Part shown: in pieces, positions 803 to 9,243 of the stretch
How positions within the stretch are numbered: position 1 is the first letter of the stretch
Layout: the number at the start of each line of letters is the position of its first letter
Origin: Promethearchaeota archaeon
Lineage (GTDB): Archaea > Asgardarchaeota > Lokiarchaeia > Sigyniarchaeales > SOKP01
Assembly: GCA_016839765.1 (NCBI GenBank)
Contig: JAEOTP010000043.1
Coordinates: 32,001 to 96,000, forward strand
DNA length: 64,000 bases
Direction of reading: 5' to 3'
Program-made: the position numbers and the translations under genes
The notes under the pieces: model-generated
Database searches by the model: none
Seen by the model: the letters and a program-made list of their open reading frames with translations, nothing else
What the model was told of the DNA's origin: nothing

Positions 803-1858
803 ATGATTGATAAAATAGTTGTGTTTGGAGGCAAAGGCGGTGTTGGAAAAAGCTCAATTAGTGCTGCAACAGCCGTAAAGCTTTCGGAATTAGTTCCCAC
901 TAAAAAAATTCTATTAATTTCATTTGATATTGCACATAATTTAACTGACATTTTTGGAATCACTATAAACAGTAAAATAACTCCTATTACGGATAACTTA
1001 TGGGCAATTGAACCTGATCCAAATCTTTATGCTGAAAAATATACAAAAGATTTAGTGGAAAAAATGAAAACTCTTATAAAACAAATGCCTATCATTGGAA
1101 ATTTACCTCAAATCGAGAAGTTTATTAATACGACATTCACAGCAGATTCTATCCCATTGGCTTTAAAAAATGCGATGTTTTTCCAAAAATTACTAGATGC
1201 AGAAGATCTTGATACTCAAGAAATTCAATTTGATATCATCGTAGCAGATTTTCCTCCCACAGGAAATATGGTGGCTCTTTTCGAAATTCCCGAAGATCAA
1301 GTTAAAGTTGTTTTGAAATATTCTTTAAATTTTTATAATTCAATTAGAGGGGCAATTAGAAATTTCTCTAAAATGTTTAGACAGCTAATTAAACCTTTTG
1401 ATGATGGAAGCTATGAAAAAAGAAGAGAATTAGGAAATGAAATTTTTAACATGGTAGTAGAACTTGAAAAACGTGGAGAAAGAATAAGCGAATTAATTCA
1501 TAGTGTAGGATCCTTACGATTGGTCACTATCGCTGAAAGACCTAGTTTTGAAGAAATAAAAAGAGCACGAGATTTAACTAAAAGATATATTTCCCTTCAT
1601 GCTGTTCATATAAACATGTTAACTCCCGAAGTAAAAAAATGCGAATACTGTAAAAAGATGAGATCTAACCAATTAAAATTTACATCAGAAATTAAAAACG
1701 AGTTTAAAAAATTAAGAATTTGGGAATCAGATCGCCTTATTGATGAACCAATTGGATTAGACGGGATAAAAAAACTCGCCACGGAAGTGTATGGAAATGT
1801 TACTGCAAATGAAATTTTGAATCCTCTAGTTAAGATGAAAAAAATGAATAAAATTTAG
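803..1858 (+). CDS. ArsA/Get3 (TRC40) family ATPase
   Basis: GKGGVGKSS deviant P-loop, SFDIAHNL, DFPPTG switch II, C-terminal CEYC. Confidence 0.85.
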   Translation: MIDKIVVFGGKGGVGKSSISAATAVKLSELVPTKKILLISFDIAHNLTDIFGITINSKITPITDNLWAIEPDPNLYAEKYTKDLVEKMKTLIKQMPIIGNLPQIEKFINTTFTADSIPLALKNAMFFQKLLDAEDLDTQEIQFDIIVADFPPTGNMVALFEIPEDQVKVVLKYSLNFYNSIRGAIRNFSKMFRQLIKPFDDGSYEKRRELGNEIFNMVVELEKRGERISELIHSVGSLRLVTIAERPSFEEIKRARDLTKRYISLHAVHINMLTPEVKKCEYCKKMRSNQLKFTSEIKNEFKKLRIWESDRLIDEPIGLDGIKKLATEVYGNVTANEILNPLVKMKKMNKI

Positions 1859-3123
1859 GTCCCTTCAAGGTATCCATGGATATAATTGTATTGTTCCCCA
1901 GTCAGTTCATCAATTTCAATGCCCATTGATTGTAATTTTAAATATCCTACTTTATTATCTATTTCTGTTGGAATCTCGATTATACCAGGTTTGAAGGACC
2001 CTTTATTTTTAACAATATACTCAGATATTAATGATTGTAAAGCAAAAGACATGTCCATTACTTCACTTGGATGACCTTCAGATAATACTAAATTAGCTAA
2101 TCTTCCTTTAGCAAGTAAATAAATCTTTTTACCACCTGGCAGAGTCAATTCTTCTACATGTTTTCGTATTGGTTTTACTTCTTTAGCATAGTCATATAAT
2201 TGTTTAGTTGGAATTTCAATATCAAAATGACCTAAATTCCCAAGAATGACACCATCCTTGAATGTGTCAAATATTTCAGGTTTAGGTGGAATAACATGCT
2301 TACATCCTGTAGCTGTTAGAATTACATCTGCCTCTGGAAGAGTTTTAAGAATAGGTTTTACATCAAATCCTGCAAATTTGGCTTGTAAGGCTTTTATTGG
2401 ATCCACCTCTGTTACAGTCACATTTGCACCTAAACCTTTTGCTCGTAATGCCATCCCTGAAGAACAATGACCATATCCTGCAATAACAACATCCTTTCCA
2501 GCAAATAGTATATGCATTCCATATATTGCTGAAATGACCCCTTGTCCTGTGCCTAGCTCATTATCAAATTGATTTTTGCATCGCGCATCATTGACTGGAA
2601 ATAATGGTACTTTTAATACACCCTGTTTATCCATAGCTCTGAAGCGTTTTACTCCGGTTGTAGTTTCCTCTTGACATCCAATTATAATACCTTCTTCAAT
2701 TAATTCAGGAAATTCTTTATGTGCCGTTACAATCATATCTGCTCCATCATCTATCAAAATATTTGGTTTTGCTTTCAAGCATTGTCGTATACACCAGTAA
2801 AACTCTTCATCAGTATTTCCATGCCAAGCAAATACATTAACTCCCTCTTCAACTAAAGCTGCAGCTACATCGTCTTGGGTTGATAATGGATTGCTGCCAC
2901 ATAAATAAACCTCTGCTCCTCCTGCTTTAAGTGTACGTGCGAGATTTCCAGTTTCTTTAGTAATGTGTAGGCATCCCGCGATGACCACACCCTTCAATGG
3001 TTTTTCTTTTGTAAATCTTTCACGAATAATTTTAACCGTTACTGGCATTTTTCTTTCTGCGATATATAATGCTTCTTTTCCCTTTTCAGCTAATGATTCA
3101 TCAGCAACTTTATAATTTACCAT
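1855..3123 (-). CDS. ahcY: Adenosylhomocysteinase
   Basis: GCLHITKET, SNPLSTQDDVAAAL, EETTTG, GRLANL, GHPSEVMDMSFA. Confidence 0.97.
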   Translation of the reverse strand: MVNYKVADESLAEKGKEALYIAERKMPVTVKIIRERFTKEKPLKGVVIAGCLHITKETGNLARTLKAGGAEVYLCGSNPLSTQDDVAAALVEEGVNVFAWHGNTDEEFYWCIRQCLKAKPNILIDDGADMIVTAHKEFPELIEEGIIIGCQEETTTGVKRFRAMDKQGVLKVPLFPVNDARCKNQFDNELGTGQGVISAIYGMHILFAGKDVVIAGYGHCSSGMALRAKGLGANVTVTEVDPIKALQAKFAGFDVKPILKTLPEADVILTATGCKHVIPPKPEIFDTFKDGVILGNLGHFDIEIPTKQLYDYAKEVKPIRKHVEELTLPGGKKIYLLAKGRLANLVLSEGHPSEVMDMSFALQSLISEYIVKNKGSFKPGIIEIPTEIDNKVGYLKLQSMGIEIDELTGEQYNYIHGYLEGT

Positions 3124-3243
3124 TTAAAGTTCACTTTCAAAGTTTTACTTTTAATAATTTTAATTAACTAATAAAGATATTTTTGGTTAAATGCAAATAT
3201 TTATATATTTAATTTGACAATTAATTAATAATATACAAGAAAA

Positions 3244-4494
3244 ATGCAAAATTGTAATATTATGAGTAGTAGTAAAGATCGAGTGGAAGCCCAACACTTT
3301 ATAAAGAATTTAAGTGGAAAAACCAAATTTGTTATATCAAAAAATTCACGTGCGATAGGACTCTCTAGACAAACATATCAAAACAAACTTGATAATTTGA
3401 GATACCAAAAAATAATTACCAATTTTACAATTAATATTAATCCAAATATTCGCCCAAATAATTTGAAATATGTAATGATTGAAATAAAAACTAACCCTAA
3501 AGAACCTGAATTAGTCGAAGAACTCTTAAAAATTCCGCAATTAAGAATGTTAGATGGAATATTTGGAGATTTTTCTCTGTTTGCATTATTTATTTTTAAA
3601 TCTCCCGAGGAATATTATCAGATATTGAATAACATTGATAAAACTATGTCAAAATCATATTTTAAGAAATATCAGATAATCGAAACTATTAAGGTGTTTA
3701 AAACAAATGGAATTAGCTTGAGAGACTCAAAAATCTCATTTACTCTTGGAAAAAAAATCAATTTAAAAGAAATTGCTAAAAATTCTGCGAATATCGAATA
3801 TAACCCACAGAAATTTCCGGGCGTTGTTATGAAGATAGAAGATCCAAATGCTACAATTTTGATTTTCTCAACTGGTAAAATAGTAGTAACTGAATTTAGA
3901 AAAGAAATAGGAGCTAAACAATTAATAGATAAAGTTGCCCAAGAGATAAGAAAAACAGGAATTCAACTAGAGAAGAAGATTAGTCAAAATTTTTATATTG
4001 ATGAGATAGATTACCTTATTTTAAAAATATTACAAGATGACCAAGGATTAAGACCAATTTCTACATATGAAATCAAAGATTTGCTAAATGAAAAGTATAG
4101 AATGACTTTAAAGTCTCTGAACAAAGACGATATTTCACAATCAACTATTCATAACAGAATTAAAAAACTCGAACAACAAGGTGCTATCTTAAATTATACA
4201 GTGAATTTTTGTCCAAAAAAAATAGGCTTTAAAGGCAAATATCTCCTTCGTATTAAACCAAAAGATCCATCAAAATATAATGAACTTGCTCTTAAACTGG
4301 ATATGCACAAAAATATTACTGATTTATTTCGAATAGGCGAACAATATGGATTATTTGCGATTGTTAGAGTGGAAAAAATTGAAGATTTTGCCTCTTTTAT
4401 CAAGGATCTATATAGTTCAGAAGAAATTGAAGATACATACACAAGCTTTGTTTTAGATGAGTTGAAACCTTATACTAATTTTATCCTTTTTTGA
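3244..4494 (+). CDS. Tandem Lrp/AsnC transcriptional regulator with an inserted single TBP repeat
   Basis: Two HTH+RAM modules (GLSRQTYQNKLDNL; ISQSTIHNRIKKLEQQGAI) flank a TBP-like segment EYNPQKFPGVVMKIEDPNATILIFSTGKIVVT. Confidence 0.85.
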   Translation: MQNCNIMSSSKDRVEAQHFIKNLSGKTKFVISKNSRAIGLSRQTYQNKLDNLRYQKIITNFTININPNIRPNNLKYVMIEIKTNPKEPELVEELLKIPQLRMLDGIFGDFSLFALFIFKSPEEYYQILNNIDKTMSKSYFKKYQIIETIKVFKTNGISLRDSKISFTLGKKINLKEIAKNSANIEYNPQKFPGVVMKIEDPNATILIFSTGKIVVTEFRKEIGAKQLIDKVAQEIRKTGIQLEKKISQNFYIDEIDYLILKILQDDQGLRPISTYEIKDLLNEKYRMTLKSLNKDDISQSTIHNRIKKLEQQGAILNYTVNFCPKKIGFKGKYLLRIKPKDPSKYNELALKLDMHKNITDLFRIGEQYGLFAIVRVEKIEDFASFIKDLYSSEEIEDTYTSFVLDELKPYTNFILF

Positions 4495-4582: not shown

Positions 4583-6673
4583 TTGTATATTATGAATTAT
4601 TTTTATGAAATCTTAAATAAACGGATAGGTTATTCTAGAGTCGGGAGAATCAAATTATCGAAGGAACCTAAGAAATATGTAAAGACTCCTAACGTTATTC
4701 TCCCTATGCGAAATTTTCTATTGAAAAATGTTAACTTCTTAGAAGAGTTTGAAGACCATGAAATTTTTTTAATATCAAAAGAAGTTTTCCTAAAAATAGG
4801 TTTTTTGCGCGATAAGTTTAGAAATACAGCTTTTATTTTCACCCATACAGGTACACTACAAACATTTATAGAAATTTTAGAGAATAATATTGACATCTTC
4901 TCGGAAGATAATATTATTCTTCTAATCCCTTTCAATATCCCAACGACAATTCTTGATGAAAATTTTGCTAAAAATGAAATCTTATATCATCTTAATTCAG
5001 TAAAAAAACTCTTAGAAAATTTTCCAAATCTTAATTTTGGGTTAAGTATTAAAATATTTGAACATCCACAATTCCTTGATCTATATAGTCCATTAATAAA
5101 AGAAAATAAAAATATTAAAATATTAAATTTAATTGACTTTTTCACTGCTAATACTAATTTTAGAAATGTCTTGGATTTAATTATTAGCATTAAACAAAAC
5201 TTTGATAATAATTTAGTTTTAATGGCTTCAGGACGGATTATCCCAAAGTATTTTCCAATTTTAATTTACTTAGGTATCGATCTTATTGATAGCTCATATT
5301 TACTTTATTTAACTTCAGAGAATTTCTATGATACAATAGAATTTTTACTTCCAATTTATAAAGTAAAGTATTTTCCTTGTTCATGTGTAGCTTGTCAAAC
5401 AAAATTAAAGAACTTCCAAAGTATGAAATATTCAGATGAAATATTTGAATATTTGTGTCTACATAATCTAATAACAGCAAAAACTTATATGAATAAAATA
5501 AAACAATATTTAAGGACAGAGGATTTCCGAGCATTTGTAGAAAAGACCTCATTTGATGATGTTCTAATCGTTTCAATATTAAAAGTATTAGATAGACAAT
5601 ATTTTGATTTAATAAAGTATGAGACTCCGATAACAGATTCTTTCTCGACAGTTAAATGCTTTGGTCCATCTTCTTACTATAGGCCAGACTTTCATCAATT
5701 TAGGGAGAGGTTAATAAAATATTTTTTACCTGAACCGTGGACAAAATTGATTATAATTTTTCCTTGCTCTGCAAGAAAGCCATATTCAGCATCAAAATCT
5801 CATAAGAAATTTCACAGTGTTTTAAGGAAATTTCCGGATTTCCCGGATTTTCAAGAAATTATTCTTACTTCCCCTCTTGGAGCTATACCACGACAGTTAG
5901 AAAATGTCTATCCTGTAAATTCATATGATATATCTGTAACTGGATTTTGGGATAATGAGGAGATTGATTTAGCTTCTCAAATGTTGGTTGAACTACTTAA
6001 GAAGTATAATACAAAAATCCCTATTATATGTCATGTAAGTGATAAAGGATACAAGGAAATTGTTTTAAGAGCACAAAAACAACTGTCTAACCAATTTTAT
6101 TTTACAGAGGTCTACAAAAATCTTACAACTTCTGATTCATTGAAGTCGCTGGAGAACATCGTAAATAATTTAAAAGATATTTTTATTTTAAAGGAAAATA
6201 TACCAAAGTCGAAGTATTATTCAAAATCGTGGGTTCGAAAATTAGTTAAAATTGCTGATTATCAGTTTGGTTCTAATATTGGTATGAAAATCTTTTCAAA
6301 AGGAATAAGAGTCAAGAAAAATAATGTGAGTAAAAATTTAGATATTATTGATATTGAAAACAAAAAATTATTAGGAAAATTTTTGGTTAAGACGGGTCAA
6401 ATTGAATTAACATTAATTGGAGCAGAAATTTTATCAGCCATTGACAAAGAATTTAATATTTTGGTCTTTGATGGAGATTTAATAAAGGGAAATACTCTTT
6501 TTAGACCAGGAATTGTTGAATTTAGTCAGAATCTTATCCCAAATAATTATGTTATTATTTTGGATAAAAGTAAAAAAAGTGTGATTGGACTTGCCAAATT
6601 AATTGTTGGTTCAAATTATATAAAAAACTCAAGTAATGGAAGGATTGCTAAAGTTTATGAAAAAATCAGTTAA
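4583..6673 (+). CDS. arcS: Archaeosine synthase subunit alpha (ArcS/TgtA2) with C-terminal PUA domain
   Basis: TGT-like N-terminus with CSCVAC..H zinc site, PCSARKPYSASKSH, TSPLGAIPR, PUA-like C-terminus; adjacent to RaSEA. Confidence 0.88.
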   Translation: MYIMNYFYEILNKRIGYSRVGRIKLSKEPKKYVKTPNVILPMRNFLLKNVNFLEEFEDHEIFLISKEVFLKIGFLRDKFRNTAFIFTHTGTLQTFIEILENNIDIFSEDNIILLIPFNIPTTILDENFAKNEILYHLNSVKKLLENFPNLNFGLSIKIFEHPQFLDLYSPLIKENKNIKILNLIDFFTANTNFRNVLDLIISIKQNFDNNLVLMASGRIIPKYFPILIYLGIDLIDSSYLLYLTSENFYDTIEFLLPIYKVKYFPCSCVACQTKLKNFQSMKYSDEIFEYLCLHNLITAKTYMNKIKQYLRTEDFRAFVEKTSFDDVLIVSILKVLDRQYFDLIKYETPITDSFSTVKCFGPSSYYRPDFHQFRERLIKYFLPEPWTKLIIIFPCSARKPYSASKSHKKFHSVLRKFPDFPDFQEIILTSPLGAIPRQLENVYPVNSYDISVTGFWDNEEIDLASQMLVELLKKYNTKIPIICHVSDKGYKEIVLRAQKQLSNQFYFTEVYKNLTTSDSLKSLENIVNNLKDIFILKENIPKSKYYSKSWVRKLVKIADYQFGSNIGMKIFSKGIRVKKNNVSKNLDIIDIENKKLLGKFLVKTGQIELTLIGAEILSAIDKEFNILVFDGDLIKGNTLFRPGIVEFSQNLIPNNYVIILDKSKKSVIGLAKLIVGSNYIKNSSNGRIAKVYEKIS

Positions 6674-7754
6674 GTCTAGTTCAATTGTCGAAAATATTAA
6701 AGAAATTAGAGACAAAACAATTTTAAAGAGGAAAAATTTTACAAGCGATCAATTAAATAAACCAGTTAGTTTTTGGATAAAGGATGATCGCCTTTTAAAT
6801 GAAAAAGGAAAGGAATTTACTATTATCTTAAGAACTAAAGGGTGCAGCTGGGCATTAAGCGATAGTGGGGGATGTTCAATGTGTGGATATATAAATGATT
6901 CCAGTATTGAAAGTATAGACGATAAACATATTATCAATCAAGTAAATCATGCTTTTCAATCAAAATTGGAAGAAATTAGAATTGAAAGAAAGAATTTTAT
7001 ATTTAAGATTTTTAATTCTGGGAGTTTTTTCGATGAGAGTGAAATCTCTGAAGAAGTAAGGAACCATATTTATCAGAAAGTATATGAGAGTGATAGGATA
7101 CAAGAATTTGTTATTGAATCTCGCTTAGAATATATTTCAAAAATGAAATTAATAGATTTAAAAAACCAACTAAATGATAAATATATTGAATTAGCGATTG
7201 GCCTTGAAACGGTTAATGATTATATTAGAAACACTTATATAAATAAATCAATGTCTTATGATGATTTTATAAAAGTTTTTCGCATTTGCAAAGAAATTGG
7301 AATCGGAGTGAGGGTATATTTACTATTTAAACCCCCCTTTTTAAATGAACAAGGTGCTATAGACGATTGCGTCAGATCTATTATAAATCTAATTAATTTA
7401 GGAGTAGAAACGGTATCAATAAATCCTATAAATATTCAAAAAGGTACATTATTAGAATATTTATGGTATCAAAATCGTTATAGACCTCCATGGTTTTATT
7501 CTCTTTTTAAAAGTTTACGCAAAATCCATGAATTAAAAAAAGATTCAACATTTCCTCGTCTAATTTCAGATCCATCTGGAGCTGGAACGAAACGAGGGAT
7601 TCACAATTGCCTAAAAAGAGAATGTAATCAAAAAATGATAAGCATTCTTCGAAATTTTGTATTATCACAAGATTTTAACTATTTAAATAAAAAAGATGCA
7701 TATTATGATTGTGATTGTTTGACAAGATACCGTCTTCAAAAGAATTTCCATTAA
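6636..7754 (+). CDS. Archaeosine biosynthesis radical SAM protein RaSEA
   Basis: ILRTKGCSWA..GGCSMCGY, KIFNSGSF, IGLET, YRPPW, RGIHNC; overlaps arcS. Confidence 0.88.
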   Translation: MEGLLKFMKKSVKSSSIVENIKEIRDKTILKRKNFTSDQLNKPVSFWIKDDRLLNEKGKEFTIILRTKGCSWALSDSGGCSMCGYINDSSIESIDDKHIINQVNHAFQSKLEEIRIERKNFIFKIFNSGSFFDESEISEEVRNHIYQKVYESDRIQEFVIESRLEYISKMKLIDLKNQLNDKYIELAIGLETVNDYIRNTYINKSMSYDDFIKVFRICKEIGIGVRVYLLFKPPFLNEQGAIDDCVRSIINLINLGVETVSINPINIQKGTLLEYLWYQNRYRPPWFYSLFKSLRKIHELKKDSTFPRLISDPSGAGTKRGIHNCLKRECNQKMISILRNFVLSQDFNYLNKKDAYYDCDCLTRYRLQKNFH

Positions 7755-8235: not shown

Positions 8236-8283
8236 CAAACTTATAGAATTTTTAGCAATTCACAATTTTAAAAGGTGTAAAGT

Positions 8284-9243
8284 ATTTCGAGTTGGAATTA
8301 TATAGAAGTTCTACCAAAAAAAGAAATTTCTATTGAAGATGATAATTGTACCGAATGTGGTAAAAAAATCATAAAAAATTCTGATTCACTTTTGGTTTGT
8401 GAAGAGTGTGGCTTAGTCCATTCGGGAAATCATATTGATCGTGGTCCTGAATGGAGAGCATTTGATGCTGATCAGAAGAAAAAGAGAACTCGAACTGGAG
8501 CGCCAATGACTTATATGATTCATGATAAAGGTTTAAGCACAATGATTGATTGGAAAAACAGAGACATTTTTGGCAAGGAAATTCCCGCAAAATCAAGGGG
8601 ACAAATCTATAGATTACGCAAATGGCAAAGTAGAATAAGGGTATCCGATGCAACAGAGAGAAATCTGACTTTTGCACTAAGTGAATTAGATCGCATGGCT
8701 TCAAATTTAGATCTCCCTAAAAATCTTCGTGAGTGTTCCGCAAAAATATATAGGGATGCGGTCGATGCTCACCTCATAAGAGGACGAAGTATTGAGGGTG
8801 TAGCTGCAGCAAGTTTATATGCCGCTTGCAGAATGTATAAAATACCTAGAACATTGAATGAAATTGCCGAAGTTGCTCGGGTGGATAAAAAGGAGATAGG
8901 AAGATCTTTCCGTTTTATATCCAATGAATTGGTCCTTAATTTGAATCCAACTAAACCCCTCGATTTCCTTACCAGATTTATTTCTGAGCTAGAACTAACA
9001 CATGATTGTCAAAAAGCAGCTAAAATAATTATTAAAATAGCAGAAACTCGTGGGTTGACGTCAGGAAGAGGACCGACAGGAGTTTGTGCAGCAGCCATTT
9101 ATGCTGCAAGTATTTTGACCAAAGAAAGAAGGACACAAAGAAAAATTGCTAAGATTAGTCAGGTAACTGAAGTTACTGTCCGTAATCGATTCACAGAGCT
9201 TATAGAGAATTTAGATTTGGGCATCTCATTAAAAAAGAAATAA
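8284..9243 (+). CDS. tfb: Transcription initiation factor IIB (TFB); true start lies upstream of the tracked ORF (8392) and is uncertain
   Basis: Zn ribbon CTEC...CEEC (first half upstream of 8392), [11 protein letters not shown]-reader, two cyclin repeats ([16 protein letters not shown]). Confidence 0.95.

Follow-up and report, generated by a model that had tools for sequence, protein, structure and literature searches.

Gene context and domain layout

In the window, the whole stretch of 64,000 nucleotides that was analysed, an open reading frame on the forward strand (3244-4494, 416 aa) encodes a tandem Lrp/AsnC regulator into which a TATA-binding protein (TBP) lobe has been inserted. The surrounding gene order, with ahcY in divergent orientation followed by lrp, an arcS-like gene, a radical SAM gene, gar1 and tfb, does not depend on whether the insert is present, which shows that insert-bearing and insert-less loci are orthologous. 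The features of the locus are as follows.

1855-3123, minus strand: ahcY, S-adenosylhomocysteine hydrolase (Pfam), the divergent neighbour in nearly all loci and a candidate target
3124-3243, no strand: divergent intergenic region common to ahcY and lrp
3200-3207, plus strand: putative TATA-like box of lrp, a block of columns conserved in carriers and secondary losses
3244-3257, no strand: 14-bp palindrome resembling an Lrp operator, conserved in position; candidate autorepression site
3244-4494, plus strand: gene for the tandem Lrp/AsnC regulator that contains the TBP lobe (ORF, Pfam, homologue starts)
3271-3429, plus strand: first helix-turn-helix (HTH), aa ~10-62, diverged but conserved (model helices; alignment to FFRP N-termini)
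3460-3714, plus strand: first RAM (AsnC ligand-binding) domain, aa ~73-157 (Pfam, model)
3718-3966, plus strand: inserted segment, aa 159-241, with the TBP-fold core at 3730-3963 (Pfam, phmmer, superposition, linker comparison)
3814 and 3865, plus strand: codons of F191 and F208, inside the inserted segment
3967-3999, plus strand: ancestral linker of 11-12 aa between the Lrp units, retained after the insert (pattern as in the insert-less L070/L074)
4000-4203, plus strand: second winged HTH, aa 253-320 (HTH_24 and HTH_AsnC-type)
4231-4473, plus strand: second RAM domain, aa 330-410 (PF01037; Z 11.7 to FFRP-DM1)
4583-7754, plus strand: arcS-like (TGT/DUF5591/PUA) and radical SAM (RaSEA-like) genes (domain content; conserved neighbours)

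The arcS-like and RaSEA-like genes are presumably archaeosine synthesis genes, a name that we assign from domain content and general knowledge. The TFB frame is open upstream of its first TTG (8392), at 8281-8391, where the first zinc-ribbon Cys pair lies, and no ATG, GTG or TTG follows the stop at 8278-8280 in that stretch.

Residue 7 of the lrp product is a Met (Met7, 3262) in at least 90% of homologues, and the true start of the frame is probably this codon rather than 3244. The ATG at 3244 is inside the conserved DNA palindrome, which would explain the apparent Met1, and there are homologues with TTG or CTG at this place. A start at 3262 implies an ahcY-lrp gap of ~138 bp; the 120-bp divergent ahcY promoter of the sequence-only reading would then be too short. 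The intergenic region could be aligned across 66 loci. The palindrome, a pattern picked after seeing the data, lies exactly 4 nt before Met7 and at the matching position in most of these loci, whether or not they carry the insert. Operators of Lrp/AsnC regulators are AT-centred inverted repeats of 13-17 bp. Apart from being one base shorter, the palindrome is similar to the Ss-LrpB site (PMC2715240), and its position downstream of the TATA-like box suggests autorepression of lrp. Scanning the whole genome with the palindrome matrix gave 30 non-coding matches that had no shared theme, and a sigma-70 promoter scan, of a kind unsuited to archaea, matched chance. Two TTAATTAA palindromes at 3160-3167 and 3221-3228, also conserved in position, flank the divergent TATA-like boxes; they may serve as additional operators or as places where the DNA melts.

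On the 416-aa protein, Pfam identified the AsnC ligand-binding domain twice and one HTH above threshold. The helices of the first HTH lie at aa 10-23, 31-37 and 42-54 in the model. The HTH-then-RAM layout is present throughout the aligned family members (PF01037 in 60/60, HTH_24 in 57/60), and both HTH-RAM units are visible in the predicted models of the window protein and of an insert-less orthologue. The full-length AlphaFold2 model is of low confidence (pTM 0.41). The model of the insert-less orthologue P0118 (pTM 0.77) is a compact single unit, and in this prediction the RAM dimer core is an intrachain pseudo-dimer within one Lrp chain. Its top structural match is NirDL, a tandem Lrp-fold protein (Z 17.9, rmsd 5.5 A, 275 residues), which brings in the alternative that the protein is a siroheme decarboxylase (NirDL/AhbAB) and not a regulator. 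Against this resemblance of fold stand an identity of ~11%, Ahb model scores of 18-20 with cut-offs of 125-140, and the His-x-Tyr-x-Arg motif, found in none of 121 homologues; moreover, the best sequence matches are regulators such as FL11, LrpA and AsnC, with FL11 as the best profile match (E 6.5e-15). The enzyme identity was rejected on the Ahb scores and the absence of the motif, and it retains practically no probability.

A single TBP repeat between two Lrp modules

The claim from which this work departed, that one TBP repeat lies between two HTH-RAM Lrp modules, is borne out by Pfam, phmmer and the fold model alike. The TBP profile PF00352 matches once, at aa 165-237 (E 1.3e-21, 76.6 bits with a cut-off of 22.9), beside the two AsnC domain matches. 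A phmmer search with aa 155-250 retrieved archaeal and eukaryotic TBPs, the best being that of P. woesei (1PCZ, E 1e-29), and solved TBPs were the only PDB sequence matches of the same segment. In the AlphaFold2 model, aa 163-249 can be laid over one lobe of human TBP (1CDW) with Z 11.8 and an rmsd of 2.0 A over 84 residues; the superposed region equals residues 71-158 of yeast TBP, so that a helix-grip lobe fold is predicted. The chain contains a single repeat, whereas the general factor has two, and the NCBIfam TBP models scored 43-66 bits, below their cut-offs of 181-347. The protein thus belongs to the Lrp/AsnC family and carries a TBP-superfamily domain, but it is not a TBP. The bounds first given for the repeat (aa ~164-240) delimit the TBP segment correctly, but the foreign segment really extends over aa ~159-241 and is followed by the old Lrp linker (aa 242-252).

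About 95 independent homologues combine AsnC and TBP domains, their sources being named Promethearchaeota (Lokiarchaeota), and both insert junctions are crossed by a contig of another study (window 3352-4161, 24 differences). Homologues in this number, together with contigs of other studies across the junctions, rule out a chimeric assembly, which the sequence-only reading had named as a possible refutation. The fusion is real and maintained under selection, but it is optional: the lobe is shared by these homologues, and close orthologues without it also exist.

Origin of the lobe

The genome has one native TBP, encoded intact on contig C67. With repeat 1 of this protein the insert shares 55% identity, with repeat 2 36%; all of the 57 inserts tested are nearer to repeat 1 than to repeat 2 (mean 48% vs 31%), and they nest in the repeat-1 clade of the TBPs of the lineage (support 95/92). 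As judged from identity and phylogeny, the lobe was copied from the N-terminal repeat of TBP in its own lineage. The long forms of the insert retain a remnant of the acidic N-terminal tail of TBP, which indicates that the 5′ half of tbp was captured, and a short Gly-Ile motif common to both insert ends suggests entry by microhomology.

Duplication of tbp is frequent in the family, with 1-4 paralogues per genome. In L129 and L132-L139 there are up to four full-length tbp paralogues, whose identity to the main TBP goes from 75% down to 37%. Free single-repeat TBP genes of the repeat-1 type (115-118 aa) occur in two relatives, at L140:2344-2691 and L141:2182-2538, both on the minus strand, in a shared location close to pyrB and to a gene for a ribosomal protein; the strand-1 Asn is retained in the former and absent from the latter. 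The inserts of L009, P0051, P0055 and P0066 have more TBP-like ends, in which the start of the first strand of the second repeat replaces the old linker, and they were possibly refreshed from native tbp by gene conversion. A second origin for the TBP-like inserts of L009, P0051 and P0055 was considered and set aside, a single clade, and with it a single origin of the insert, not being rejected (p-AU 0.62).

Distribution, loss and probable exchange

Among 161 genomes of the class, the tandem Lrp is confined to the family of the window. The insert is present in at least 37 of 135 family genomes, distributed over five genera, the count being a lower bound taken from frame lengths. In a midpoint-rooted tree built from the Lrp halves without the insert, all carriers fall into one clade, outside which the linkers are all 11-12 aa long. 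Inside it, clean losses left linkers of 9-15 aa that join the first residues of the insert to the last of the linker, and there were at least three partial deletions. On this tree the insert was acquired in one clade and later lost several times. The linker of P0101, once taken for a deletion scar, is of the ancestral type and was dismissed as such.

The state of the insert has to change nine times on a tree made from arcS and the radical SAM gene downstream of lrp (eight changes are forced by strong branches), against four on the Lrp tree. Robinson-Foulds (RF) distances are 62-64 between the Lrp tree and the trees of these neighbours and 30 between the two neighbours; the ahcY tree is also discordant, though too conserved to resolve well. 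The discordance of lrp with its neighbours suggests that alleles of other lineages replaced the resident one in place, and the gene seems to have been exchanged. L053 and L082, as well as L047 and L087/L088/L093, are near kin by their neighbour genes and have very unlike lrp alleles (about 62% vs 84% identity to the N-half of the window protein), contrasts that likewise suggest replacement in place.

Selection and conservation of the DNA face

Over the 26 genomes in which both genes occur, the insert has a mean identity of 54%, as against 95% for TBP repeat 1, a rate more than 10-fold above that of the donor; the two Lrp halves reach 85% and 80%. The dN/dS of the insert is 0.23-0.30 by maximum likelihood and 0.40 by counting; the Lrp halves have values of 0.07-0.18, and TBP has 0.004-0.03. 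An omega of 1 was rejected for the insert (2dL 173). On these codon rates, neutral evolution of the insert is rejected, and purifying selection acts on the lobe in a relaxed form.

The residues of the DNA face were compared in 97 distinct inserts. Both DNA-kinking Phe had been recognised in the sequence as retained, and they are indeed present as F191 and F208, the equivalents of yeast F99 and F116; the former is invariant (97/97) and the latter is kept in 87/97. Lys or Arg occupies the R98 site in 93/97, the R105 site in 79/97 and the K120 site in 92/97, three positions that we take to be phosphate contacts in yeast TBP. Together with a Leu/Val ridge, these residues make up the outer part of the TBP DNA face, which the lobe retains. 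The centre of the saddle, which in TBP is formed by strand 1 from both repeats and reads bases with Asn69, Val71 and Thr124, has fared differently. The Asn-x-Val of strand 1 is found in 6/97 inserts, the strand itself is shortened, and the Val71 site holds polar or charged residues in either register. T124 is retained in 42/97 and G125 in 69/97. The loss of the strand-1 Asn and the replacement of the conserved Gly in the window protein (E217) had been read correctly. N249 was tried as the second Asn of TBP and dropped, because insert-less linkers with a matching pattern show that it is not derived from TBP. At the stirrup that contacts TFB, the window protein has N187 and Q189, neither of them acidic; Glu stands at the first acidic position in 0/97 inserts, and both sites are acidic in 7/97. 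In M. jannaschii TBP, TFB can be bound by the N-stirrup, but that stirrup is fully acidic. The roles of yeast N69, V71, F99, L114, F116, V122 and T124, and the need for acidic residues of the C-lobe in the contact with TFIIB, are described in PMC12529657.

Function of the lobe

The loss of the saddle centre and of the stirrup bears directly on the earlier proposal that two lobes from an Lrp oligomer rebuild the TBP saddle and supply or compete with TBP at chosen promoters. The retained Phe pair, the part of this proposal that stood, is consistent with it, and Lrp proteins, whose working unit is the dimer, form higher oligomers (PMC2995911). Furthermore, the TATA-like box of carriers departs slightly less from the consensus, with 0.5 mismatches against 0.9 for loss lineages and 1.4 for outgroups, kin not being independent in this comparison. 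The rest of the evidence goes the other way. A pseudo-dimer within one chain would bring one lobe per operator, and the chain ends of the lobe would leave it where a second lobe would sit, according to the 71-158 overlay and TBP geometry. Native TBP is intact in 27 of the 30 carriers searched, and two of the other three have it 69-74% complete. Close orthologues dropped the lobe repeatedly and kept the gene order, the TATA-like box and the palindrome, which makes a saddle that replaces TBP unlikely; the 66-locus alignment revealed in carriers no lost promoter elements that would demand a private TBP. Co-folding of two lobe copies (aa 156-250) scored 0.02 against a mark of 0.42 and is not evidence either way. 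Altogether, the rebuilt saddle is highly improbable. The wider scenario, in which the lobe, tethered to an Lrp on its operator, acts in transcription initiation by joining another lobe or by kinking TATA-like DNA in advance, so that a ligand-controlled regulator carries a part of the basal machinery and a useful allele spread between Asgard lineages, appears quite unlikely.

The rate of evolution leads to another explanation: the lobe could be a tolerated passenger, inserted by chance and retained since its misfolding would harm the host protein, while it drifts and is being deleted. The divergence from the donor, the partial deletions and clean losses, the frequent duplication of tbp with its free half-TBP genes and the lack of any promoter difference found are what such a passenger would leave. 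In contrast, the exposed Phe and the basic residues of the DNA face persist when other surface sites change freely, and an insert kept in so many genomes of five genera is more than a passenger would lead one to expect. We regard this possibility, the second in likelihood, as serious although unlikely.

A conserved exposed face of Phe, Leu and Val would also suit a protein-contact module, whose concave face binds a protein, for instance the DNA face of native TBP or of a paralogue, and holds TBP near the promoter or away from it. TBP domains act as protein hubs elsewhere (PMC3597702), and Lrp activators operate through TBP (PMC2995911). However, the conserved ring of Lys and Arg fits a phosphate backbone better than the basic face of TBP, and the supposed partner is nearly invariant while the lobe drifts. 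This role is thus rather improbable.

The most likely role, to which we assign a probability of about one half, is that of an accessory piece that grips, kinks or wedges DNA and is not a private substitute for TBP. A folded lobe that retains the outer DNA face fits such a role best. The single-chain pseudo-dimer of two HTH-RAM units would bind a palindromic operator, probably repress its own gene and perhaps also control ahcY; this control, and Met, homocysteine or SAH as possible ligands, are conjectures from gene neighbourhood. The linker between the units received, in one clade, a copy of the 5′ half of tbp, and from there the tethered lobe would wedge into the minor groove or clamp phosphates with weak specificity, adding affinity or a kink beside the operator on A/T-rich DNA; Lrp complexes must pay the cost of DNA bending and wrapping. 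The invariant or near-invariant face residues, the rejection of omega = 1, the closeness to repeat 1 and a host folded as a pseudo-dimer argue for this accessory role. Residue-class changes per site are a third as frequent on the DNA face (7.3) as at other exposed sites (21.0), sites not being independent, and single TBP domains next to domains that bind DNA have been described before (PMC3597702). At the codon level, by contrast, the constraint on the DNA face is only slightly above that on other exposed sites (omega 0.33 vs 0.46), and strand positions may be conserved for the fold alone. The insert is also less basic than its donor (mean net charge +3.3 vs +7), it was repeatedly deleted among orthologues, and the full-length model is of low confidence. 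To our knowledge, no single TBP lobe binds duplex DNA.

Comparison with known systems

In the archaea that are nearest to eukaryotes, half of a universally essential general transcription factor has here become part of a gene-specific regulator. Natural alleles with the whole lobe, with part of it and with none exist at 75-85% identity, so that the effect of a single lobe on DNA, which studies of the one-domain ancestor of TBP have not settled, can be tested directly. Even if inert, the lobe would illustrate well how a domain is captured and decays and how alleles are exchanged. The full-text literature yielded no description of a fusion between Lrp and TBP, or of a recent TBP half inside an Lrp protein, subscription literature being partly covered. 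In a search of 1.84 billion sequences the best 150 matches were full TBPs, and the atlas matches, all below 0.8, serve as leads only. Single TBP domains outside TBP are already known; a recent TBP half inside Lrp is apparently undescribed.

With TBP itself (P. woesei 1PCZ/1AIS, yeast 1YTB and the TBP of this genome) the lobe has in common the fold, the intercalating Phe pair and several phosphate-binding basic residues. It differs in being one repeat with a truncated strand 1, in the loss of the Asn69 and Val71 sites and of the acidic TFB stirrup, in its more than 10-fold faster evolution and in being dispensable. The regulators FL11/PH1519, LrpA, LysM, Ss-LrpB and Ptr2 share with the window protein the HTH and RAM units and a palindromic AT-centred site near their own start, putative in the window protein, whereas the window protein has two diverged units in one chain, pocket loops unlike the usual Thr-Gly-x-x-Asp pattern and a candidate site of 14 bp instead of 13 or 15. 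Several archaeal Lrp proteins bind no amino acid. Ptr2 recruits a separate TBP, whereas the window protein carries a TBP lobe. NirDL (4CH7) likewise has two Lrp-like units fused as a pseudo-dimer, but it is an enzyme, whose motif and family scores are absent from the window protein. Single TBP domains outside TBP have been described in RNase HIII, DNA glycosylases, monopartite euryarchaeal proteins and Q8TJ64_METAC, the last a rare fusion with a winged-helix repressor domain (PMC3597702). The domains of RNase HIII, of the glycosylases and of most monopartite proteins are only distantly related to TBP, whereas the lobe of the window protein is a recent, traceable copy inside an Lrp regulator and, unlike the other single TBP domains, occurs with carriers and non-carriers side by side.
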